NCBI GenBank assembly: GCA_965243135.1
Contig: OZ251539.1
Location: 2,016,001 to 2,080,000 of the forward strand
Direction: 5' to 3'
Origin: Alphaproteobacteria bacterium
GTDB taxonomy: Bacteria; Pseudomonadota; Alphaproteobacteria; MPNO01; UBA830
DNA: 64,000 nucleotides
Of this stretch, positions 7,615-59,690 are shown piece by piece; the first letter of the stretch is position 1, and each line of letters opens with the position of its first letter. Position numbers and translations under genes: made by a program. The notes under the pieces are model-generated. The model did no database searches. It saw only the letters and a list, made by a program, of their open reading frames with translations, and was not told the DNA's origin.

Positions 7615-9263
7615 CAGAAATTCCCGCTAAGGTGGCCGCCCTTTGCGAAAGGCGCGTCGAGATAGCGTCGTTACCGAGGGACCAGCCGCCGCGACGCACC
7701 TTCCCCGCTTCGGCTTGGTGCCGACTTAGCCTTGACCATCCTGTTTCCCCTGAAAAACTTGCTTTAGCACATTCGGTCACGGTGCCAGGTCAGGAGGTGT
7801 CGTAGGGAATTCCCTCTGCTTTCCGGTATCCAAACGCGATCATTCGGTAGAGTGTTTCCCAGTCCTTCAAGAAGTATTCGAGAAACAATCCCCGCGCCTT
7901 TTCCCAGAAGTAAATGGGCCGCTTGGCCTTCGTTTGCGCCTGTTGGAACAGTTTGCAACATCGCTGTTGAATCTGGTCAATCAGGAACGCCAGCATCATC
8001 AGGAACGCAAAGACCGTCGACAGATTCTTGTTACCGTGACCGAAGTTGTGCTCAAAGCAGTAGCCTTGGTTCTTCAGGGTGTTGAAAGTTTCGTTCTCGA
8101 TCTTCCAGCGCGCCCGCCCGGTGCGCATCAACTCCATCAGGTTCCCTTCGTCAATTGGCAGATCCGTGACCCAGGAGAAACGTTGTTTCTTGCCGTTTGG
8201 GAGCTTCTCCCAGTATTCGAGAAAGTTCACTTTGAGGTCGAAGTGCGTATCGTTCAGAGGCACTCCGTTAAGATACCGGAATTCGTGCCGTATGTTGTCA
8301 CCGTCCGTGAACTCCCGGCGCTCCACGGACGGCGCGTTGTTGACCCACTCGAACAGGAACTTGTGGTCGCCGGGCTTCGCCCCCAGTATGAAACGCATGT
8401 CTAACTCCTTGAGAAGATTGGCATGCGGTCCGTTCGAGGCCAGCCCATCTTCCAACACAACCAGCTTCAGGTGCGGGTGTTCGCGACGCACATCTTTCAG
8501 AAGCCGTTTCGCTGCGTTGCGTTCGCAATCGTTCTTTTTTGCGCCGTCTTCCTTCAGGATCGGTTCCGGTGCAAACGGAAAAACCTCCTTTTGTTCCGGA
8601 TGCACCAGAACGGCTCCCAACATCTGGTGGTAGTAGGTAATCGTACCGTCGCGGTGGTGTTTCTCGCAGCAATTTTTACAGTGCACCTTGTCCGACGAGA
8701 AGTATCCCGTTCCATCGATCGAAAGAGCGTAATGCCCGTTCAGACAAGTGTATTCTTCCAATCCCTTGCCTCGTTGCAAAACCTGGAACATCTTCGTGAA
8801 ACAACGCCGCAATTGCCGCGGACAGACTTCGTCAAGCCGTTCGCGCATCGCAGTGTCCGACGGCACGCGCTTGACGCCGTATAAGGTCGCGAGGTTGTGC
8901 CGAACCACTTCGTCGGCGTGCGCGGCCTCGTCGAATTGCAGAAGCGACGCATACTTCATACCGAACACCGCTAGACCCGACATCAGACAGTCCGTCTGGT
9001 TCAGCCCCCTGCTCGCGATCGGATCTTCGATACGGTCGAAACAAGCTCGCACTTCCTTCAGCAATCCCGGAGCGCTGAGCGTCTTGCGCATGCCTGGCAT
9101 TCTGGCCATTTTGGTTACAATCCCGCCTCGCCTTCGGACCACTTTCCAGAGAAAAATGCTCCGCTCGAAGGCAAATAGCCCCGAATCACCTCGAAAAGTC
9201 CACGAAAGACTTTTTTCCGGCCCCATATTTTTCAAGGGTTTCGAGCCTTAGCGGGAATTGCTG
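7615..9263 (-). mobile_element. complete insertion sequence with 18-bp imperfect terminal inverted repeats and 9-bp target-site duplication
   Basis: CAGAAATTCCCGCTAAGG (7615-7632) / CCTTAGCGGGAATTGCTG (9246-9263); GGTCGTGTG at 7606-7614 and 9264-9272; visibly lower GC than the flanks. Confidence 0.92.
7790..9109 (-). CDS. DDE transposase (IS4-superfamily fold, ISNCY-like), intact
   Basis: SIDGTGYF, LEDGL, GRARWKIENETFNTLKNQGY motifs; start placed at MARMPG (9109). Confidence 0.9.
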   Translation of the reverse strand: MARMPGMRKTLSAPGLLKEVRACFDRIEDPIASRGLNQTDCLMSGLAVFGMKYASLLQFDEAAHADEVVRHNLATLYGVKRVPSDTAMRERLDEVCPRQLRRCFTKMFQVLQRGKGLEEYTCLNGHYALSIDGTGYFSSDKVHCKNCCEKHHRDGTITYYHQMLGAVLVHPEQKEVFPFAPEPILKEDGAKKNDCERNAAKRLLKDVRREHPHLKLVVLEDGLASNGPHANLLKELDMRFILGAKPGDHKFLFEWVNNAPSVERREFTDGDNIRHEFRYLNGVPLNDTHFDLKVNFLEYWEKLPNGKKQRFSWVTDLPIDEGNLMELMRTGRARWKIENETFNTLKNQGYCFEHNFGHGNKNLSTVFAFLMMLAFLIDQIQQRCCKLFQQAQTKAKRPIYFWEKARGLFLEYFLKDWETLYRMIAFGYRKAEGIPYDTS

Positions 9264-9400
9264 GGTCGTGTGAAGGGCGACACGGCCCGACACGTCGACA
9301 GTTTCAAGCAGTGCGCGGACGGCGGCGGTCTCTCCGCCTTCAAAGCCGATGCTGGCGAAGCCCGTGTTGTGCTCGACCAGGGTTGCGATTTCGGTGGAGC
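9264..9400 (-). pseudogene. ISAs1-family transposase remnant, upstream part
   Basis: ATLVEHNTG...GGETAAVRALLETVDVSGRVALHTT joins in frame to KDTA on the other side of the inserted IS. Confidence 0.7.
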
Positions 9401-9814
9401 CGGTGCGGTTGGCCCGGGCGCTTGCCGTCCCGCGCCGCCGACATGCGCTTCCCGCAGGTTGGCAGCCCGTTCATCGCCGGCGGCGCCTCGCAGAGGCGGC
9501 GGCGCTCCGTCCCCGCTTCGCAATCTTCGGCAAAGGAAAGGCCCGGGCCGTCGCCGGGCGTCGCGTCGCCGCCGCCATTCTCGCGCGGCGTCGCCGTTCC
9601 CGGGCGCCCGCCCCTCGCGGCAGGCTTCCAGGCTTGCCTGCGAGGCATCGCCGCGCCGCCGCGCGCGGACGGAAAACAGCCGGTCTCGCGACCGCCGTCC
9701 CGTCTCGGCCACCCGGACGGCGACTCCTTGCGCGCCGGGTCCGCTGACGACGGCGCCCCCGACGGCGCCCAACCTCTCCGCCGCATCCCTCCCGCGCGAG
9801 GCGGCCTTCGCCAT

Positions 9815-9930
9815 CGTCGATCCTGACTTCTATTTTGGCGCTCTCGACCTTGATTTCGCCGCGGAGCTGCGCCGCGGTCTTGTCGATCTTGGCGTCGAGT
9901 TTGACTTCGAGCTGCGCGATGTCGGCGTCG
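9815..9930 (-). pseudogene. internal fragment of a DUF1640-like coiled-coil gene
   Basis: closely matches the stalk repeats at ~3660-3930 (DIAQLEVKLDAKIDKTAAQLRGEIK). Confidence 0.75.
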
Positions 9931-10031
9931 AGCCGAAGCGGGAAAGGTGTGTCGCGACGGCTGGTCCCTTGGCAACGATGCTATCTCGACGCGCCTTTCG
10001 CAAAGGGCAGCCACCTTGGCGGGAATTTCTG
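9931..10031 (+). mobile_element. orphan ~100-bp terminal fragment of the 7615-9263 IS, inverted
   Basis: diverged reverse complement of 7615-7715, ending CCTTGGCGGGAATTTCTG. Confidence 0.85.
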
Positions 10032-52351: not shown

Positions 52352-53899
52352 TCAGACGGTCTCGAACTCGAACCCGACGATGTTGCGCTCCTCCCGGCCG
52401 AACTCCACCCCGATCAGGTGGACCGGCACGCCCGGACGCCGGTGCTTGTCCGCGTAGCCGCGCTCCCGAATCTGCGCCAGCGCCCGGCCTTGCGGCTTCC
52501 CGTCCGCGACCTTGAACTCGAACAGATAGACGTTGCCGTTGTACAGGAGCGTCAGGTCCGAGCGGCCGCGCGCCGTGCTCTCCTCCGCGCGGACGTCCAT
52601 GCCCGCCGCCACGAAGTGCGAATAGAACACGCTCGCGTAGTGCGCCTCGTAGCCGGCCATGCCCGTGTTCGCGTACCACTCGTTCGGGATGCTCGCCAGG
52701 AACGCCCGGAACAGATTCTCGAGGCCGGCGAAGTCGTTCGCCCGCATCAGGCGGCGCAACTCCCGGCTCTCCGCCGCGACCGTGACCTCCGGCGCCATCG
52801 CCTTCAGCAGAAGCGCGTTCAGACTGCGCTTCACCTCCTGGTTCGGGTAGTCCAGCCGGTAGAGGCGCGTGTCTTCGTCCCGCTCCTCGTCGACGATGGT
52901 CAGATAGCCGGTCTGGAACAGCAGCGCCTCGACGGGAATGCGGTCGACGTCGATGGCCGACAGCAGCGCGTCGTCCGCGACCAGATCCTCCAGGGCCGGC
53001 GGCGCGAACCGGCGCCGCGACAGAAGGTCGGCGAGAAAGGTCGGCGTGCCGGTCTGGAACCAGTGCGCCTCGAACTCGCGCGTTTCGAAGAGAAGGAGAA
53101 TGTCGAACGGGTTGTAGACCCTCTCCGGCCCGCGCCAGTTGTAGCCGTTGTACCAGCGCCGAACCTTCTCCCGGTCCAGGCCCTCGAGTTCCGGGGCGAA
53201 GACCGCGTCCAGCTCGTCGTCAGTGTAGCCGCAGATGGCGCCGAAACGCGGATCGAGGGTGATGTCGCGCAGGTTGTTCAGGCCCGAGAACAGGCCCGCC
53301 TGCGAGAACTTGCTCACGCCGGTAAGGAAGGCGAACCGGACATGCGCGTCGCAGTCCTTGACGACGCTGTAGAAGCCGCGCAGGAAGTCGCGGTTGGCCA
53401 GCGCCAGTTCCCGGTCGCCGAGCGCGTCCAGAATCGGCTTGTCGTATTCGTCGACCAGAATGACCGTCCGCTGCCCGGCGCGCTCGTGCAGCGTCCTTAT
53501 CAGGCGCCGGAAACGGACCGCCGCCCCGGCGGGGCCCGGTTCGAGGCCGGCCAGCCGTTCCGTTTCCTCCAACTGGTCTTCCACGTTTCCCCGAACGAGA
53601 TCCGGGGAGTCGAAATTGCCCCCGCCGAAGCTGATCCGCACGACGGGATGGCGCGCCGACCAGTCCCACTTGCCGTGTATGGCGAGATCGCGAAACAGCT
53701 CCTCGCTTCCCTTGAACAACTCCTGCAGCGTGTCCACCAGCAGGGTCTTGCCGAACCGGCGCGGACGCGACAGAAAATAATATTGACCACCCTCGACAAG
53801 GCGGCGGACATGGTCCGTCTTGTCGACGTAGTAGCAGTCCATCTCTCCCCGGATTTTCCGGAGGGAGGTCATGCCGGTCGGCAGCATGCGCTTCGTCAT
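52352..53899 (-). CDS. AAA-ATPase-like domain plus PD-(D/E)XK nuclease protein, intact
   Basis: SRPRRFGKT, LVDEYDKP, GRSDL...YLFEFK; paralog of 421-1945. Confidence 0.92.
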   Translation of the reverse strand: MTKRMLPTGMTSLRKIRGEMDCYYVDKTDHVRRLVEGGQYYFLSRPRRFGKTLLVDTLQELFKGSEELFRDLAIHGKWDWSARHPVVRISFGGGNFDSPDLVRGNVEDQLEETERLAGLEPGPAGAAVRFRRLIRTLHERAGQRTVILVDEYDKPILDALGDRELALANRDFLRGFYSVVKDCDAHVRFAFLTGVSKFSQAGLFSGLNNLRDITLDPRFGAICGYTDDELDAVFAPELEGLDREKVRRWYNGYNWRGPERVYNPFDILLLFETREFEAHWFQTGTPTFLADLLSRRRFAPPALEDLVADDALLSAIDVDRIPVEALLFQTGYLTIVDEERDEDTRLYRLDYPNQEVKRSLNALLLKAMAPEVTVAAESRELRRLMRANDFAGLENLFRAFLASIPNEWYANTGMAGYEAHYASVFYSHFVAAGMDVRAEESTARGRSDLTLLYNGNVYLFEFKVADGKPQGRALAQIRERGYADKHRRPGVPVHLIGVEFGREERNIVGFEFETV

Positions 53900-53905
53900 C
53901 CCAGG

Positions 53906-53934
53906 AGACTAGGCCGCCGCGCCGGAGCCGTCAA
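53906..53934 (-). promoter_or_regulatory. sigma70-type leaderless promoter, homologous to 386-414
   Basis: TTGACG-N17-TAGTCT-N6-ATG on the minus strand. Confidence 0.7.
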
Positions 53935-54278
53935 GGAGCCGGCGGTCGGCAAGCAGGGCGAGGAACGGGGCGGTCATGGCCAAGCGCTGCCCGCGAGGCG
54001 GCAGCGGTGCGGGAAGCGCCAGCGTCGGGAGGTCAAGTGTAAGCGGTCACCGGCAGTTTCAGGTGCAAAGCCGCGCCTGAAAGGAAGGCGTTTCCGTTTC
54101 ACGCCTGGTCAGGCCGGAAAATGCCGCGTGCTTTCAAGCAGTTCCGCAGCACCATGTCGTGGGATTCCCTTTCCTCTGTAATAACAGCCGCCGTCTGCGG
54201 TTCTCGGCCTTTCCCGCAAGAAGCCGTGCCGATCGTGGCGACAATCAGCACATAGATATTCATCGAAACTCCGCGCCT

Positions 54279-54533
54279 CTACTCATTGCACCGAAAATGG
54301 TTGCAACGAGCGAGTTCGTAATGATTCTTCGCGCCGGAAAAATAGTACTGCCGCTCGGCCATTGCGCGGGTCGTGCGCGCCCGGTCCGAGCCGGCGGGTG
54401 CGGAACCAGGACCGATCGTTCCTGTGTTTTCTCGCGATATCCCCCCACAAGCTTGAGATCGCATATGGATTGTAGCCGGCAAGAGCGGCATAGACGACGC
54501 CGATCTTGTCCGCCTCGTTCTCGTTCGGAACGC
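54279..54533 (-). pseudogene. C-terminal remnant of an M48-family metallopeptidase
   Basis: ENEADKIGVVYAALAGYNPYAISSLW...WFRT/(H)PAGSDR across a frameshift; N-terminal part absent, replaced by the adjacent element. Confidence 0.55.
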
Positions 54534-54686
54534 TGTACGCAAGGTCGACGACGACGGCAAGCGGTGGACGACGTCTCCGGAACCTCGCAGCGCGGTTCCC
54601 GGGTATGAGTGCTCACGATAATTGATTGGGTTTGTTTCGCCGTTTTTGATGGTTTTCCATGCCGAGAACAGGGCTGGCTAGTGAGT

Positions 54687-54801
54687 GTTTCCGGTTTCCG
54701 TTTCCGCCCGGTCCATAGGGTTGTCGGGAACCGGAAGGCGGGGGGGGCATCTGCCTTCGGTCGGGCTACGCCCTCCCTGCGGCGGATGCCCCCCCCCCCC
54801 C
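54687..54801. repeat. TTTCCG iteron-like repeats with an inverted copy, followed by a long GC hairpin
   Basis: gtttccg-gtttccg-tttccg (54687-54706), ggaaccggaa (54727-54736); GGGGGGGCATCTGCC...GGCGGATGCCCCCCC stem (54741-54795). Confidence 0.7.
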
Positions 54802-54824
54802 GCACTGCTACTTGCGACGCTTGG

Positions 54825-55745
54825 TCAAGATGCGATGCAATACCCGTCAGGGGTGTGAGCGACCCGCCCTTCGGAGACCAGTTCTCTGAGAACGCTGCTG
54901 ACGGTGCTGGCGCGCATGTGCGCCGCATCCCGGATTTGCCGCTGGGAGAGCGGAGTGTCGGCGAGAAGGTTTTCGACGCGTTGGCGAGGCGACATGGCAG
55001 GCGCTTCGGAGGCGGCCTCGACGATCTGCAGCGACGGGACCGGTGTCTCGCGCAATTCGAGAACGATTTCGTCGGGGCTTTTGGAAGCGCGATGTTCGAC
55101 AGTCAGCAAAATGCGGTGCTTCTTGCGTCGTAGATAAAGGTTGGAGTCGCCCCAGGCGTGCAGTTCGGAAGAGCCGCGCAACGCCTGTCCGCCTCGCGCA
55201 TGGGCGCTCTTGCGGGCATGGTGGACGAGAACGACGGCTGTCTCGAAGTTGCGTTGCAGGTCGCGCAGGCAGGCGAGCAACGGTGCGACCTCGCCTGCGG
55301 CGTTTTCGTCGATGCGGTGGAGGCGAACCAGAGGATCAAGAACCAGCAGGCGTGGCCGGACGCGGCGGACCGTCTCGAACAGGCGCTGCCTGTCGTCGGC
55401 CAGGTCAAGACGCACAGCGGGAACGTCGATCACGTCGATATCGAGGTTGTCGAGATAGGTTCCGGCGGCCTGTGCGATGCCATCGAGGCGCTCGCGAACG
55501 ATGTGGGCGGCGTCTTCCGCGGCGAACAGCAGAACGCGGCCGGAAGCAGCGGAGAAGCGTCGCAGGCAGGGCGTGCCGGTTGCGACGGCAACGGCGAGAT
55601 CAAGAGCGAGAAAGGATTTGCCGCACTTTGGCTCTCCGCCGATAATGCCGACCGCCTGCTCGCTCCACAGTTGTTCGACGAGCCAGCGCCGCTCCTGCGG
55701 CTGTTCGGCGAGTTCCGCGGGCCGACGGGTGGGGAAAGCATTCAT
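54825..55745 (-). CDS. RecA/RepA-like AAA_25 ATPase with C-terminal winged-helix-like domain
   Basis: WLVEQLW, GGEPKCGKS, FAAED, LLVLDPL, VLVHHARK, LRGSSELHAW; ATG overlaps the upstream TGA (ATGA). Confidence 0.85.
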   Translation of the reverse strand: MNAFPTRRPAELAEQPQERRWLVEQLWSEQAVGIIGGEPKCGKSFLALDLAVAVATGTPCLRRFSAASGRVLLFAAEDAAHIVRERLDGIAQAAGTYLDNLDIDVIDVPAVRLDLADDRQRLFETVRRVRPRLLVLDPLVRLHRIDENAAGEVAPLLACLRDLQRNFETAVVLVHHARKSAHARGGQALRGSSELHAWGDSNLYLRRKKHRILLTVEHRASKSPDEIVLELRETPVPSLQIVEAASEAPAMSPRQRVENLLADTPLSQRQIRDAAHMRASTVSSVLRELVSEGRVAHTPDGYCIAS

Positions 55746-56572
55746 GATCGCGCTCCCCTGCGTTTGTCGGGCGTGAAGATCTCGAAGAACAGTTTCTCGT
55801 CGAGTTCGGTGATCTCGCGCTCGGCGGCGGCGGCGAGCAGGCTGTCCGCTATTTTGGTGAGAGAGCGGTAGTTGCCGGCAGCGTGATCGCAAAGGGCATC
55901 CCTGAGGTTCTGCGTCATGAGATTGGGATTGCCGGCCTTCTCGAGGAGGTGATCGAGGCAGGCGGCAAGTTCCTTTCGTTCGGCATACCCCATGGCCAGG
56001 CGCTGACGGATGCGAGATTCCAGGGGAAGCAGATCGCTGCGCTGCAGCTTGTCGGCAAGGCGCGTGTCGCCAGCCAGCACGACGCTGAGAATGGATCGGG
56101 AGTCGAACTCGGTGGCGGCGAGCAGACGCAATTCTCCGAGCACTGCGGGCTGAAGTTCCTGCGCCTCGTCGATCAGCAGGACAGGACGCAAACGGATCGC
56201 TTCGAGGTGATCCTGCCAACGCGTTCGGAGAACCTTGAAGCCGCCCCATCGGTTGTGGGGGCGCAGCGGGACGTCAAAGAGTTCGCCCATCTCGCGGTAG
56301 AAGTCGGCGAGGTTGGACGAGGGATGGGTCAGAGCGGCGACCACCAGGTCGCGGTTGCGCGTCAGCCGGTCCGCAAGCAAGCGCAGAACCACGCTCTTGC
56401 CGGTGCCCGGCTCCCCGACGATCAAGGCGAAGCCGCCGTCCCGGACCAGATGCTCGTCGACGCGCCAGCAGAAGCTTTCGACGCGCGGCGTGGTGAATAG
56501 CGCCTCGACCGGCAGTTCCGGCGAGAAGGGATTCCATTTGAGGCCGTGGAGGGAGAGCAGCCTATGTTTCAT
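55742..56572 (-). CDS. ExeA/TniB-like AAA ATPase (transposition helper)
   Basis: GLKWNPF, GEPGTGKS, LLIDEAQ; overlaps the transposase 3' end. Confidence 0.88.
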   Translation of the reverse strand: MKHRLLSLHGLKWNPFSPELPVEALFTTPRVESFCWRVDEHLVRDGGFALIVGEPGTGKSVVLRLLADRLTRNRDLVVAALTHPSSNLADFYREMGELFDVPLRPHNRWGGFKVLRTRWQDHLEAIRLRPVLLIDEAQELQPAVLGELRLLAATEFDSRSILSVVLAGDTRLADKLQRSDLLPLESRIRQRLAMGYAERKELAACLDHLLEKAGNPNLMTQNLRDALCDHAAGNYRSLTKIADSLLAAAAEREITELDEKLFFEIFTPDKRRGARS

Positions 56573-57995
56573 CGTCCGTATCCTCGTTGGTCGGAAGGAA
56601 GGCGGGGGGCAGGCCGGTCGCGGCCGCATCGTCTAGGAGCTGCTTGAGCAGCGGCGCTATCTCGCCCGTTGCCGGCGTGACATCTGTCTCGACTGGCCTC
56701 ACCTGTCGGCGTTCGCCGTCCGCGTTGGCGCTCTTGTCGAGCGGGTAGAGTGCGCACAGCCAGGTTCCGTGACCGGGGTCGACGAGGGCAATCGTCGACA
56801 GATCCCAGGATGCGTAGCGGAGGTGGAGGTTCCGCATGTGGCGATACTGCGACGGCACCTCGAAGCGCACGCCTCCAAGTGAAAGCGTGCCGTCCGTGTG
56901 CCGCTGCCGACGCGTCGCTCCGGTGCGGAATGCCCGGCGCAGCGTCTCGCCGGACGGACACTCGCGACCGACATGGGGGCTCTCAAGAAAACGTGCCGTT
57001 GGCGTGGCGCCGATTTCCCGGTGGATACGGTTGTTGTAGTCCTTCTGGACCCACGCTTGGGTCGCCTCGTTGAGTTGCGCCAGGGAAAGGGAGTCGACGC
57101 CTTGCAGCATCGCCAGCAGACGTCCTTCCGTAACCGACCAGAAACGCTCCACTTTGCCATTTTGGTTCGGGGAATACGGCAAAGTGGTGTCATGCAGGAT
57201 GCCAAGATCGTGCAGCCCGGTGCGCACCTCGCCGGCGGTCTCCGCCTTGCCGTTGTCCGTCATCAGCGCCCGCGGCAAACCATGCTTCATCAGGGCCTGC
57301 GACAGGCCGTGCACGAAGTTCTGCGCCGTCTCCCCGAGATACCACTGCAGATGGCAAGCAAAGCGCGAGTGATCGTCGAGAACGGCCAGCAATAAAGGCG
57401 TATGCCATCGTCCTCGCTTGTCGAGCACGCGGAGCGAGCCATGATGGAAGTCGGCGTGCCACAGGCCGTGGGCATGCTCGTAACTGCGTATCTCGTACTG
57501 CTCGCGTCGTTCCGCCGCCGCCGCTTCCCCCGCCTTCTTCGGCCGCCGCTTGCGCTGCAATCCGTGCGTTCGCATGTAGCGGGCCACAGTGGCATAGGAT
57601 GGCAGCGGACCGAGCGACGGATCGTCTTCGGCCAATGCCTTGAGGTTGTCGTAGTGCAGTTGCGCCGACCAGTTGGGATTTTGTCGGTATTGCAATTGCA
57701 GCGCCTCGATCAGCGGCGCGAACAGCGTGCGTGATCGACCTGCATCCGACCGTACCCGGCGGCGGAGAGCGCCGACCGGATCCTGTTCGGCTCGCCGCGC
57801 CTGATAGTACCAGCGTTCGATCGTCACGAAGGAGAAGCGCGCCGGCGCACCGGTCACCGGATGCCGCCACTCCTGTTTCGCCAAGCGCTCGATCTCGGCG
57901 CATAGTTCGCCGTGCGCCGGCGGCGCCGCCAGCAGGGTGCCGACGACGGCGAAGCGCAATCGCGCCCATCGCTCCCGATTTGTGTCCTGCTGCAT
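56562..57995 (-). CDS. DDE transposase/integrase (rve core, N-terminal HTH, Mu-like C-terminal domain)
   Basis: WHADFHH, LDDHSR, TDNG, NGKVERFW, YNNRIHREI, DGTLSLGGVRFEVP. Confidence 0.92.
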   Translation of the reverse strand: MQQDTNRERWARLRFAVVGTLLAAPPAHGELCAEIERLAKQEWRHPVTGAPARFSFVTIERWYYQARRAEQDPVGALRRRVRSDAGRSRTLFAPLIEALQLQYRQNPNWSAQLHYDNLKALAEDDPSLGPLPSYATVARYMRTHGLQRKRRPKKAGEAAAAERREQYEIRSYEHAHGLWHADFHHGSLRVLDKRGRWHTPLLLAVLDDHSRFACHLQWYLGETAQNFVHGLSQALMKHGLPRALMTDNGKAETAGEVRTGLHDLGILHDTTLPYSPNQNGKVERFWSVTEGRLLAMLQGVDSLSLAQLNEATQAWVQKDYNNRIHREIGATPTARFLESPHVGRECPSGETLRRAFRTGATRRQRHTDGTLSLGGVRFEVPSQYRHMRNLHLRYASWDLSTIALVDPGHGTWLCALYPLDKSANADGERRQVRPVETDVTPATGEIAPLLKQLLDDAAATGLPPAFLPTNEDTDDET

Positions 57996-58041
57996 CGACC
58001 GCCTCCCGTTTGGTCAGGATGCGGACCCTAAACTCCCCTCA

Positions 58042-58602
58042 TCAATTGGAAGAGACGGCAAGTTCTGCGGGTTCGAATGCCCCGTCGCCGAACTTGCTCG
58101 TCAACGGCGACAGCCGCTGCAGAAGAGCTATCGGGTCTGTGAATATCTCGACCAGCGATAGCGGCAGCGTCTTCGGCGGTTCCGGAAGGCGGGTACGCAG
58201 CTTGCGCCACAGGGAGGTCTCGACGAAAGTCTCGCGCCACCAGCGCCGCCAGCGCTGAAGCGTGCGTTTGTCGATGCCCAGACGATCGACAACCAAACGG
58301 AACTCTGGACCCCGGCCCGTCATGGCTGTCAGGAACACGAAGACGAAGGCCACATACACCCGGCGCCCGAAGTACCGCACCGAGGGCGGCGTGACGCGGC
58401 GGCGGCAGCTTGCGCAACAGAAACTCAGGCGCCGCGCTCCGGCGACGAGCGGTCGCTCAACGCCACGCGGCTTTCGCGGATACGACGCGGCATGCAAATC
58501 GCCGCCGCAGTGTGGACAGGCCTTGATACGGGCTGCCAGATCCTCGTCTATGCGTTCGAGAAAAGCCCAGGTTGTGGAGTCGACGGGAAAATCGTGGGAC
58601 AA
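58042..58602 (-). CDS. Zn-ribbon plus HTH-like protein, first gene of the element
   Basis: CPHCGG..H...YPRKPRG...CCASCRRR; TLQRWRRWW; TTG start inferred. Confidence 0.7.
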   Translation of the reverse strand: MSHDFPVDSTTWAFLERIDEDLAARIKACPHCGGDLHAASYPRKPRGVERPLVAGARRLSFCCASCRRRVTPPSVRYFGRRVYVAFVFVFLTAMTGRGPEFRLVVDRLGIDKRTLQRWRRWWRETFVETSLWRKLRTRLPEPPKTLPLSLVEIFTDPIALLQRLSPLTSKFGDGAFEPAELAVSSN

Positions 58603-58734
58603 TGGTCGTGTCTTCCATGTTGGGTGACGCACCCGGAAGACACCCCCTCGGCACTTGTCTGACAAGCTCGTCGAGGGGGATCCTCAAATAATTTGATTAA
58701 AATCCCCAGGAAACCTGTGCATATCCCTGCACAG

Positions 58735-59690
58735 CCACACCGGGAGCCACAACTTCTCCCGGCTCCTGAGCGCCAAGCTTGAAAGCAAGGATCCCCGGCG
58801 GCCTGGTCCGGGAGTTGCGGGAGCAACTGACGGCGGAGTTGCCGGACTTCGGGGAGCACCTCGGACGGCAAGGCGGTGAACAGCCACTCGACGGGGCAGG
58901 TCAGCCGCAAGACCGGCAAGACTTCCGACCCGGACGCCAGCTGGAGGAAGCACGAGACCGCCGGCATGGACGGGAAGACCGGCAATCTCCGGACGAAGGT
59001 GAAGTCGCGGTTCGGGCTGCACGTGGATACCAAGTACGAAATCCCGGTGGCCTTCAGCGTCACCCAGGCGTCCGAGCCCGGGGAGCTGGACGCGATGCTG
59101 GACAGGCTGTTCGGGGAAACGCCGCTGTTGGCCGGGCGCTGCAAGGACTTCAGCGCGGACCGGGGCAGCGGGCCGCTCAAGGCGAAGCTGTGGGACGAGT
59201 TCGGCCCCCTTGACGCGCCTGTTGTGGCGGGAAGAGAAGAAGGACACGACCCGACAAGCCCCCGTCCGCTCTTCGACGACAACATCTACGGGCGAAGTGC
59301 TGTGCAAATGTCCCGAAACCGACGTCCAGCGGCACATGGCGTTCCAGGGACCGCGGGGCGTGCGACACCCTCAAGTACCGTTGCTCGGCAGCGGCCTTCG
59401 GCTTGCGCAGGGCGCAAGGAATGCCGCCGGGCCGCCGAGTGCCAGGCCGGCGAGTACGGTCGTCCGCGTCGACCTGGAGAAGCATGACAGGGTTCACGCC
59501 GGTCCCTTGGGGCAGCCCCTCCTGGAAGCGCGGACCGCCGCTCCGCCATGGAGCGGATCTACAGCCGAACGCTTACGGAGAAGCACTACGTCCGCGGCCT
59601 GCGGGCGCCTGCGGCTCGGCCTCGTGACGGTGGTGGCGACGGCGCTCGGGTATCTGCGGGCGGAACGCCAGGGCGGTCGCTGGTCGCTCC
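58735..59690 (+). pseudogene. degraded IS5/IS1182-like DDE transposase
   Basis: HNFSRLL, LPDFGEHL, GKAVNSHS, SDPDASW, VDTKYEIPVAFSVTQAS, FSADRG across several frameshifts. Confidence 0.65.

Follow-up and report, generated by a model that had tools for sequence, protein, structure and literature searches.

A Mu-like transposon of the Tn6049 family with a RepA-like ATPase gene in its fourth slot

Introduction

The window, a stretch of 64,000 nucleotides from an alphaproteobacterial genome (assembly GCA_965243135.1, contig OZ251539.1), contains a short operon that ends in a gene for a RepA-like ATPase. This raises the question of what such an ATPase does in a transposon. The first-pass annotation, made from the letters alone, described genes for a Zn-ribbon/HTH protein, a DDE transposase, an overlapping AAA ATPase, and an ATGA-coupled AAA_25 ATPase (here g1 to g4), and this four-gene operon is present on the minus strand. 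The locus was also taken for a mobile element of the Mu/Tn7/Tn5053 kind, which is borne out by MuB/TnsC profile matches, bounded copies, and empty sites. Judged by its sequence, the element at 54603-58739 belongs intact to the Tn6049 family of compact, Mu-like DDE transposons (Table 1).

Table 1. Features of the transposon and its flanks (positions in the window)
Feature	Position	Strand	Remarks
Whole transposon	54603..58739	-	4137 bp; bounds from alignment of copies in this genome with two empty sites
Left end, gene orientation	58725..58739	-	minus strand reads 5'-TGTGGCTGTGCAGGG
g1	58042..58602	-	186 aa; Zn-ribbon (CxxC...CCxxC) and HTH; Tn6049 orf1 homologue
g2	56562..57995	-	477 aa; DDE transposase; rve core with HTH_32-like N-terminus and putative Mu-transpos_C-like barrel
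g3	55742..56572	-	276 aa; AAA+ ATPase, MuB/TnsC type ('gspA' of Tn6049); AAA_22 8e-25
g4	54825..55745	-	306 aa; AAA_25 RepA-like ATPase/putative helicase, C-terminal winged helix; AAA_25 1.5e-38
GC-rich hairpin	54737..54799		30+30 nt; inverted repeat between g4 stop codon and right end; REP/MITE-like
Right end, gene orientation	54603..54632	-	minus strand reads ...CGTGAGCACTCATAC-3'
Target-site duplication, left copy	54599..54602		CCGG; empty-site comparison
Target-site duplication, right copy	58740..58743		CCGG; empty-site comparison
Left piece of IS-like repeat	54540..54602		63 bp; insertion target, outside transposon
3' remnant of M48 peptidase gene	54283..54540	-	outside transposon; Pfam and paralogous stretch

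Bounds, copies and flanks of the element

Several old copies in the genome, together with two empty sites and a target duplication of 4 bp, show that the transposon has clear bounds and has moved as one piece. Blastn within the genome finds further copies at 76-87% identity, and their starts and stops all coincide with 54603 and 58739. These other copies are frameshifted (tblastn), and only the copy in the window has four intact reading frames. The left end ...CAGCCACA is common to seven of eight genomic copies or fragments, and GTATGAG... is common to four copies at the right end; beyond each of these the flanks diverge. The left end starts with TGTGG... in the window transposon, against TGAGCG... 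in relatives, and that of Tn6049 starts with TGTGC... (PMC4739549). The right end of the copies in this genome is ...CTCATAC, three bases past the CTCA-3' of relatives, and not ...CA. Around the hairpin, the stretch at about 54738-54805 matches nine other genomic places at 78-91% identity.

The two empty sites, located elsewhere in the genome, read ...GGTTCCCGGGAGCC..., and the duplication is 4 bp long; assigning the element's first G to the target would make it 5 bp (CCGGG). A second genomic copy (C1:446558-452084) has ACAGC flanks (5 bp). The alignment of copies, which the first-pass annotation had put forward as a check, gave the ends, the CCGG duplication, and no shared target site among the insertions of relatives. 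The element had been placed at 54534..58664 and was thought to truncate an M48 peptidase gene at 54534; these bounds and the M48 junction are about 70 bp off at each end. The remnant itself is real. It has a weak Pfam match in frame 54286-54612(-) (E 0.013, under the cut-off), and the M48 domain is complete (E 2e-21) in the product of a 96%-identical paralogous stretch elsewhere in the genome. As it ends at about 54540 and 63 bp of IS-like repeat precede the transposon, the transposon is not the cause of the truncation. The IS-like repeat resumes at 58740 and runs for about 1.2 kb.

The four proteins

The g1 protein starts at the TTG at 58602, where its homologues start, in a frame that is open from 58665. 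It comprises the CxxC...CCxxC motif and an HTH_23 domain, the latter present in 14 of 16 family members. Three cysteines are invariant in the alignment (C29, C62/C63, and C66), and C32 is nearly invariant. All of the 1062 database clusters of this family are unnamed. By sequence g1 has no likeness to TniQ (hhalign against Tn402 TniQ, probability 0.3%), and the TniQ Pfam domain has no match among the four proteins or among 16 homologues of g1. Its homology suggests a DNA-binding accessory protein, which may bind the ends or act in regulation.

The g2 protein matches Pfam rve and rve_3, and its residues D182, D247, and E283 are invariant across 15 homologues. The Mu-like C-terminus that had been ascribed to it has no Pfam match in the protein itself and draws its support from homologues: 2 of 15 relatives match Mu-transpos_C, and hhalign of g2 against the type B transposases described below, which carry this domain, gives 99.9% (E 3.5e-36, 399 columns). 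Against NCBIfam IS21, g2 scores 69 bits (cut-off 160), and against IS481 it scores 125 bits (cut-off 224). The NCBI pipeline labels the Tn6049 transposase 'IS481 family'; membership of IS481 is rejected for g2 on account of this score and of an element with four genes, which is not a single-gene IS. From its homology, g2 would be a MuA/TnsB-type transposase that joins the 3' ends of the element to staggered target cuts.

The g3 gene overlaps g2 by 11 nt. The best solved relative of its family profile is MuB, the 'target DNA activator B' of phage Mu (8xvb, E 1.5e-7), and ShTnsC is also matched (E 0.011). The PADLOC TnsC model matches at 1.3e-6, and the IstB_IS21 families give no match at E 0.01. 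Genes like g3 are rare, occurring in 2 of 400 genomes in a broad sample of the phylum. The protein is a putative ATP-dependent target-DNA activator of the MuB/TnsC type, as judged by homology.

The g4 gene is joined to g3 by an ATGA overlap. A likeness to RepA had been proposed for its product, and among PDB sequences RSF1010 RepA (1g8y) is indeed the sole match (E 1.7e-10, residues 32-195). The GKS, AED, LVLD, and HHA-K motifs align to 1g8y, and their residues are invariant in 23 homologues; we take them to be the Walker A motif, the catalytic Glu, the Walker B Asp, and the HH..K motif. This conservation suggests that g4 is an active RepA-like NTPase. The C-terminus has a weak match of the MarR_2 winged-helix type. 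Databases name the AAA_25 family only as 'AAA family ATPase' or 'RecA-family ATPase'. TnsA, TniQ, resolvase, and Cas domains were not found in the four proteins, the only genes of the bounded element, and the earlier statement of their absence is upheld to that extent.

The fourth slot in the family

The g4 gene belongs to the transposon unit and is not loose cargo. Co-occurrence of the genes, which had been proposed for survey, was followed in the best 80 loci of 358 relatives found with AAA_25. In all 80 of these closest loci the AAA_25 gene lies directly after the MuB-like AAA_22 ATPase gene. The DDE gene is upstream in 76, and the remaining four are contig or locus end cuts. Element bounds enclose the AAA_25 gene in six groups of near-identical copies. 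The 4-nt overlap of g3 and g4 is present in the window, in 13 of 14 type A loci, and in 4 of 8 type B loci, as counted with script-chosen start codons. Types A and B are two transposon lineages, between which the transposase and the AAA_22 protein are 26% identical and the AAA_25 protein 63%. The type B AAA_25 proteins are in one well-supported clade (96/95) with eight type A sequences. In three groups of copies the element bounds also contain a DUF3991+Toprim_2 primase-like fifth gene, and such a gene follows g4 at a further locus, L033, the bounds of which are unmapped.

When 80 loci were chosen by g3 instead, the fourth slot contained AAA_25 in 14, an orf4-like gene of about 70 aa in 56, neither in 10, and both in none, and the AAA_25 form is thus a minority in this sample. 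No AAA_25-bearing locus, the window transposon included, has an orf4-like frame. The AAA_25 gene had been taken for a substitute for TniQ; what it replaces within the family is the ~70-aa fourth gene. The predicted ~70-aa protein usually carries an acidic 'PF' tail like that of SSB. At the C-terminus, 50 of 58 orf4-like proteins have acidic residues and then F, versus 12 of 2357 other frames, a count with some bias, as the seeds of the orf4 HMM contained the tail. The SSB of the host ends in DLDDEIPF, and the SSB-Ct hexapeptide is given as DDDIPF (PMC5872125).

Close relatives have many identical copies per genome, with duplications of 4-6 bp (mostly 5 bp) at unrelated sites. Scored by eye, the duplications of type A copies are of 5 bp (6/11), 4 bp (3/11), and 6 bp (2/11), and those of type B copies are of 5 bp in 7/10. 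The insertion sites that were compared among relatives are unrelated sequences and share no site. A reciprocal flank swap was found between two copies of relatives, and homologous recombination explains it as well as replicative transposition does.

A proposed role for g4 and its alternatives

The sequences suggest, with a probability of about 0.5 for the reading as a whole, that the element transposes replicatively like Mu, that its fourth slot is a module for hand-off to replication, and that g4 serves there as a RepA-type helicase. The absence of TnsA points to replicative transposition. As neither a resolvase nor a second nuclease of the TnsA type is encoded, strand transfer is expected to leave a forked intermediate, which must then be replicated (copy-and-paste), and the host would have to resolve any cointegrates. 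From the family's anatomy, the fourth slot would pass the forked intermediate to replication. PriA binds the SSB tail, and in most relatives the 'PF' tail of the ~70-aa protein may borrow host SSB-tail-binding proteins such as PriA. In the window transposon the product of g4 would be a hexameric RepA-type helicase bearing a winged helix. It would be loaded onto the fork at the end of the transposon and unwind the element, bypassing the PriA/DnaB-loading route of the host. A hexameric ring and 5'-3' unwinding, the traits of RepA-type helicases, are predicted for g4. In some relatives the Toprim primase-like gene joins g4. In Mu, PriA receives the strand-transfer complex and goes on to load DnaB (PMC3334882). 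If this is true, a helicase in place of a small accessory gene may let the transposon start its own copying. Points that weigh against this reading are the dependence of cointegrates on the host, the minority status of the AAA_25 form, the scarcity of g3-like genes, and the ...CTCATAC right end.

A different role for g4 would be that of a target selector or regulator in place of TniQ, TnsD, or TnsE, in which the winged helix reads a feature of the DNA and the ATPase talks to g3, so that targets are chosen or licensed. The lack of a TniQ-like protein, the translational coupling to g3, and the DNA-binding type of the C-terminal domain are consistent with this, but the sequences at the insertions are unrelated and have no site in common, most family members do without g4, and a primase-like gene accompanies it in some relatives. 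In addition, g4 has been exchanged between lineages in which g3 is 26% identical, unlike a co-evolving selector, and the role of selector is unlikely. It is also distinctly unlikely that g4 and orf4 are passengers of some other benefit to the element or host, for instance by interfering with host repair or with defence nucleases that attack transposition intermediates, or that g4 is a plasmid-derived gene acquired by chance. The variable fourth slot and the generic ATPase names of the AAA_25 family would suit a passenger, and a mimic of the SSB tail could compete rather than recruit. Against this, the place of g4 is constant and its overlap with g3 occurs in two lineages, the NTPase motifs do not vary, it has no PADLOC match, and no homologue occurs among 72,556 plasmids at E 1e-20.

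As a ring-type RecA-fold ATPase adjoining a MuB-like gene, g4 might instead remodel or disassemble the stable transpososome after strand transfer, which is the job of ClpX in Mu, or aid gap repair. Disassembly precedes replication in Mu (PMC3334882). However, the closest solved relative of g4 is a DNA helicase and not an unfoldase, and in some relatives g4 is paired with a primase-like gene, which makes this role decidedly improbable. RSF1010 replicates with a helicase, RepA, and a primase, RepB. The five-gene relatives hold a helicase-type and a primase-type protein, and g4 (with Toprim in relatives) could form a minimal RSF1010-like set for an element that replicates as an excised plasmid-like circle. 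This is highly improbable: the copies are chromosomal and have target duplications, no initiator and no iteron-like repeats are seen in the element, and circle formation is not known for MuA/TnsB-type transposases.

Comparison with known systems

The g4 protein resembles RSF1010 RepA in its NTPase motifs. It differs in the added C-terminal winged helix and in its setting, which is a transposon operon and not a plasmid replicon, with no RepC-like initiator. The pairing of a DDE transposase with an ATPase is shared with IS21, whereas the window element has four genes and IS21 and IS481 have one or two.

Tn5053/Tn402 (TniA-TniB-TniQ-TniR) and Tn7 (TnsABCDE) also have a pair of transposase and AAA+ regulator and 5-bp duplications, and type B relatives match Pfam TniB (7e-5). 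In contrast, no targeting of att or res sites is evident for the window element. Assignment to Tn7/Tn5053 proper is rejected, as g1-g4 show no sequence match to a TniQ/TnsD selector, a TnsA endonuclease, or a TniR resolvase.

The element is similar to phage Mu in its DDE transposase, the Mu-transpos_C-type barrel detected in part of the family of g2, target duplications of about 5 bp, MuB as the best solved relative of the ATPase profile, and the lack of a second nuclease. It is not a phage, however, and has an extra Zn-ribbon/HTH gene. Mu uses the host proteins ClpX, IF2, PriA, and DnaB (PMC3334882), whereas the window element encodes a putative helicase of its own.

Tn6049 is the nearest known element. 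It is found in Cupriavidus metallidurans CH34 and on the P. aeruginosa plasmid pHS87a (PMC2864759, PMC4739549). Its orf1, DDE transposase, and 'gspA' are 43, 55, and 59% identical to g1, g2, and g3 in the same order (blastp, pMOL30 copy, near full length). Both elements have short imperfect TG... ends with a 4-bp direct repeat (PMC4739549) and multiple copies per genome, with 12 of Tn6049 in CH34 (PMC2864759). In contrast, Tn6049 is 3.5 kb long with a fourth gene of 71-90 aa, and the window element is 4.1 kb long with a fourth gene for a 306-aa RepA-like ATPase, to which nothing in Tn6049 corresponds. At the DNA level the two elements are no more than about 64% identical over g2-g3. The class had been called poorly characterised, which agrees with the account of Tn6049 as a named transposon whose module 'could not be categorized' (PMC6210171). 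It had also been called undescribed, which stands in part, as the backbone matches a named element. The first-pass annotation had held a match to a defined family with known roles against its proposal, and what was found is one half of this, a family that is named and whose gene roles are not established. The Tn6049 backbone is thus already known, and the RepA-type AAA_25 gene in a fourth slot of the Tn6049 type is newly seen.

Gene content and bounds of the element

The element is a Tn6049-family transposon with four genes: g1, a Zn-ribbon/HTH protein; g2, a DDE transposase; g3, a MuB/TnsC-like AAA_22 ATPase; and g4, a RepA-like AAA_25 protein with a winged helix. They form the single coherent minus-strand operon of a region with 58-67% G+C and many spurious ORFs. 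The g2 and g3 genes overlap by 11 nt, and g3 and g4 are joined by an ATGA overlap. The MSH... and MCH... starts of 15 homologues fit a g1 start at TTG 58602 rather than at an upstream TTG at 58665. A promoter and terminator scan was uninformative (1 promoter-like site vs 0.5 expected, on the wrong strand), and neither long terminal inverted repeats nor iterons were found in the element.

A blastn search of the 6.1-Mb genome of the window with positions 54400-58800 gave three additional copies that are nearly complete, plus several fragments. All genomic copies begin and end at positions equal to window 54603 and 58739, which replace the ends proposed in the first-pass annotation, 54534 and 58664. 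Every other genomic copy holds all four genes in frameshifted form, and the sole intact copy is that of the window (tblastn). Sequences matching the 64 bp to the left of the element and the DNA of its right flank lie next to each other at two other loci, so these are empty sites (...GGTTCCCGGGAGCC...). CCGG was therefore duplicated on insertion, or CCGGG if the first G of the element is assigned to the target. The flanks of the split copy are ACAGC; matching flanks are absent from the other two full copies. The element is bounded, moves as a unit, and makes short staggered target duplications. Its insertion target is a multi-copy IS-like repeat. The M48 peptidase remnant that the transposon was thought to truncate is real, but it ends at about 54540, and 63 bp of IS-like repeat precede the transposon.

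Three bases lie beyond the right-end stop of the relatives (...CTCA-3') in all four genomic copies, so that ...CTCATAC is the terminus of the element here. Past the g4 stop codon and before the right end, a GC-rich hairpin containing runs of G and of C may be a small nested REP/MITE-like repeat, because similar sequences occur at 9 other genomic places (78-91%). The neighbourhood is a mosaic of IS fragments and repeats, including a very high-copy small repeat of about 150 bp.

Features of the element, its surroundings, and its relatives (C1, coordinates in the window's genome; L numbers, examined loci of relatives)
Feature	Location	Strand	Remarks
Element	window 54603-58739	-	4137 bp
g1	window 58042-58602	-	186 aa; Zn ribbon, weak HTH_23
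g2	window 56562-57995	-	477 aa; rve, rve_3; NCBIfam IS481 125 bits vs cut-off 224
g3	window 55742-56572	-	276 aa; AAA_22 8e-25; TIGR03015 90 bits vs 324
g4	window 54825-55745	-	306 aa; AAA_25 1.5e-38; weak MarR_2-type winged helix, residues 261-300
Extra end bases	window 54603-54605	+	GTA
Hairpin	window 54737-54799		
High-copy small repeat	window 53800-53955		>100 genomic places at 75-92% identity
Neighbour gene, outside element	window 52352-53899	-	515 aa; AAA-ATPase_like (E 1.7e-56), PDDEXK_9 (E 3.6e-18)
Genomic copy	C1:3019862-3023722		87% identical
Genomic copy	C1:2829494-2833294		81% identical
Genomic copy, split by insert	C1:446558-447452 + 449049-452084		
Type B element	L071:4800-9100		
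Type B element	L099:4826-9447		
Type B first gene	L071:5213-5836		
Fifth gene, in bounds	L084:9103-9972		
Fifth gene, in bounds	L081:9063-9893		
Fifth gene, in bounds	L098 ~9100-9967		
Fifth-gene-type ORF	L033:3239-4108		after AAA_25 gene; genome of window's order; element bounds unmapped there
orf4	L011:5805-6020		
orf4	L012:5272-5487		

Relatives with the AAA_25 gene

A scan of the genomes of 185,579 species with an alignment of four g4-type proteins gave 358 relatives. The best 80 of these loci were examined (L038-L117); they come from about 26 assemblies, mostly MAGs, and taxon labels are unreliable for short MAG contigs consisting of a repeat. Conservation of the AAA_25 gene with the other genes, on which the first-pass annotation had staked its case, is confirmed: a g4 homologue directly follows the AAA_22 gene in 80/80 of these best loci. 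The DDE gene is upstream in 76 of them, and the other four are truncated where the contig or locus stops. The same 80 loci comprise two lineages, type A with the g1-g2-g3-g4 arrangement of the window (56 loci) and type B (24 loci). Type B has a Cys/His-rich first gene of 207-243 aa that is unrelated to g1, a 439-aa Mu-transpos_C transposase, a 266-aa AAA_22/TniB-like ATPase, and the AAA_25 gene, and its ends are TGTTGTTTTCC...GAAACAACA. At least 12 identical type B copies are present in one MAG.

The bounds of relatives were set by groups of near-identical copies inside single genomes. Type A groups measure 4384 bp (12 copies compared in one record) and 4429 bp, the type B group measures 4622 bp (12 copies), and three groups of longer type A forms reach 4980-5323 bp. 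Target duplications, read by eye, are 5 bp in 6/11, 4 bp in 3/11, and 6 bp in 2/11 type A copies; in type B they are 5 bp in 7/10 copies and 4 bp in 1/10. The remaining two type B copies (L106 and L117, of one MAG) have reciprocally swapped flanks, CCCTC/CGGGG vs CGGGG/CCCTC, which could reflect recombination between the two copies or a replicative event within one molecule. The insertion sites of the relatives' copies are unrelated sequences, and there is no fixed target site. Inside their bounds, the longer forms contain a fifth gene of 276-289 aa with DUF3991 and Toprim_2 domains (primase-like). The L084 protein contains ...TESAVD... and ...YDADSAGD..., which fit the Toprim Glu and DxD motifs.

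The mean identity between types A and B is 26% for the transposase and 26% for the AAA_22 protein, vs 59% and 62% within type A. For the AAA_25 protein it is 63% between the types and 60% within type A. In the AAA_25 tree, all eight type B sequences and eight of type A form one well-supported clade (96/95), and the protein of the window is in the other clade; a single A/B split of this tree was not rejected by the AU test (p 0.089). The identity pattern and the tree therefore indicate transfer of a g4-type gene from one old transposon lineage to the other, or its uptake by both from a common pool. The AAA_25 gene is an integral, exchangeable module of the element.

Protein relationships

A profile of 17 g3-type proteins matches the phage Mu ATP-dependent target DNA activator B (8xvb) with E 1.5e-7, followed by ShTnsC with E 0.011, and the PADLOC type V-K TnsC model matches g3 at 1.3e-6. 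An end-to-end alignment links the g2 family to another family of transposases (HTH_32, rve, Mu-transpos_C; 99.9%, E 3.5e-36, 399 columns). A direct Mu-transpos_C match was found in 2/15 g2 relatives, and D182, D247, and E283 of g2 are invariant. As single sequences against the PDB, g2 and g3 gave retroviral integrase cores only, and nothing useful.

The sole PDB match of g4 is the RSF1010 RepA helicase (1g8y), with E 1.7e-10. The GKS, AED, LVLD, and HHA-K strings of g4 align to 1g8y and are invariant across 23 homologues; these strings presumably correspond to the Walker A motif, the catalytic Glu, the Walker B Asp, and the HH..K motif. Many AAA_25 homologues (e.g., L071, L038, L097, and L079) have a short extra C-terminal tail past the winged helix with an (R)FP-x-P motif (alignment columns ~340-376), and g4 of the window is without this tail.

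The g1 family comprises 1062 clusters, none of them named. The idea that g1 is TniQ-like found no backing, as hhalign of the g1 family showed no sequence relation to Tn402 TniQ (0.3%). Nor was a relation to the type B first gene found by hhalign (1%). By eye, a Cys/His cluster precedes Y-x-R-K-(T)-P-x-G in the first genes of both types. Against the PDB, the g1 profile matched only an AlpA HTH, and weakly (E 0.022). The ESM Atlas homologue P0133 points to DUF6431/HTH_23 clusters, and also matches the N-terminus of an ISL3 transposase (TM 0.51), which is a lead only.

The gene position after g3

Tn6049-type relatives usually have orf4, a protein of about 70 aa, at the gene position after g3. A metagenome scan gave at least 529 relatives, of which the best 80 were examined (L126-L205); because the query was a g3 alignment including Tn6049, this sample is independent of g4. 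Among these best 80 of at least 529 relatives, the position holds AAA_25 in 14, an orf4-like ORF in 56 (by an HMM built for the analysis), both in none, and neither in 10, where the downstream DNA is too short in several. No orf4-like frame was found in the element of the window, the 80 AAA_25 loci, or the other copies examined. A g3 search of 400 genomes of the phylum gave 2 matches, too few to survey this position. A g3 tree with 97 rows requires about three changes of the AAA_25/orf4 label, at least one of them forced by well-supported branches, and 0/500 shuffles were as low; the label proportions are biased, because 15 of the 97 rows were chosen through g4. The element of the window belongs to a clade with good support that comprises 14 AAA_25 elements.

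The orf4 proteins have a common N-terminal helical segment and a tail of acidic residues then F. This ending occurs in 50/58 orf4 proteins (43 of these with PF or DF) vs 12/2357 other frames with a stop. The 58 proteins come from L011, L012, and 56 of the metagenome loci, and the typical SSB-like termini are PF, DF, and IPF. The host SSB C-terminus is DLDDEIPF. PMC5872125 gives the SSB C-terminal hexapeptide DDDIPF as a conserved partner-binding tip, and no mention of an SSB-like orf4 tail was found in the accessible portions of the Tn6049 literature.

Proposed role of the fourth gene

To our knowledge, the hand-off of a transposition intermediate to the replisome has been worked out for phage Mu only. 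The steps described there are ClpX, a disassembly factor and IF2, and then PriA leading to DnaB loading (PMC3334882). From homology, g2 and g3 would act like MuA/MuB or TnsB/TnsC. Because TnsA and a resolvase are absent, strand transfer would probably leave a forked intermediate that needs replication. The fourth gene may serve to hand this intermediate to replication. PriA binds the SSB tail; orf4 would be an SSB-tail mimic that borrows host partners. The g4 protein could instead be a fork helicase that the element itself encodes, guided by the winged helix and joined in some relatives by a primase-like partner. The odds that the fourth position serves replication hand-off, by the orf4 mimic or the g4 helicase, are about even.

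Several rival roles for g4 are weighed against replication hand-off. The protein may select the target, may be cargo or an anti-nuclease, or may remodel the transpososome. It may also belong to a plasmid-like replication.

The full hand-off reading describes a widespread Mu-like DDE family with one gene position for either an SSB-tail-mimic adaptor, which borrows host restart proteins, or a RepA-type helicase of its own, accompanied by a primase in some members. The latter would give a replicative start of its own without PriA/DnaB loading. This reading is tentative, with a probability of about 0.4. If it is true, elements of 4-5 kb begin their replicative transposition without dependence on PriA and DnaB loading. 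The family is a natural swap experiment: one backbone bears a tiny SSB-tailed protein in some elements and a helicase in others, to which a primase-like gene may be added. In such small and simple elements, the swap of the fourth gene on a common backbone opens the hand-off step to direct tests.

Relatives of g4 are abundant in metagenomes, with at least 7985 AAA_25 clusters (7985 of 8000 scored candidates, E <= 1e-10), and identical copies reach a dozen or more per genome. The AAA_25 form is absent from 72,556 sequenced plasmids at 1e-20. Annotations of the family's proteins do not go beyond 'AAA family ATPase' or 'hypothetical'. A DDE/AAA_22/AAA_25 transposon is not described in the searchable literature, to which the 2009 description of Tn6049 and a supplementary table of Tn6049 relatives (PMC3414803) did not belong.

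Comparison with Tn6049 and other known systems

Distant blastn against the 72,556 plasmids gave 23 records matching over g2-g3 with 64-70% identity. Twenty of the 23 are from Cupriavidus, annotated as 'IS481 family transposase' and 'AAA family ATPase'. The pMOL30 unit consists of orf1 (181 aa), a DDE gene (479 aa), an AAA gene (277 aa), and a 71-aa ORF, a layout also present on a Paraburkholderia plasmid and on pHS87a. The pMOL30 unit is Tn6049. According to the respective papers, Tn6049 is a 3.5-kb element with 12 copies in CH34 and 'gspA' in every copy (PMC2864759), its ends are imperfect inverted repeats of 12 bp with a direct repeat of 4 bp (PMC4739549), and its 'transposition module ... 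could not be categorized' (PMC6210171). The g1, g2, and g3 proteins are 43%, 55%, and 59% identical to Tn6049 proteins, whereas g4 has no counterpart in Tn6049. A 2026 preprint on Tn3 calls the hand-off question 'poorly investigated' (10.64898/2026.05.30.728999). If the hand-off reading is true, the AAA_25 elements represent a 'bring-your-own-helicase' route beside those termed 'hiring' and 'hijacking' in discussions of Mu and Tn3.
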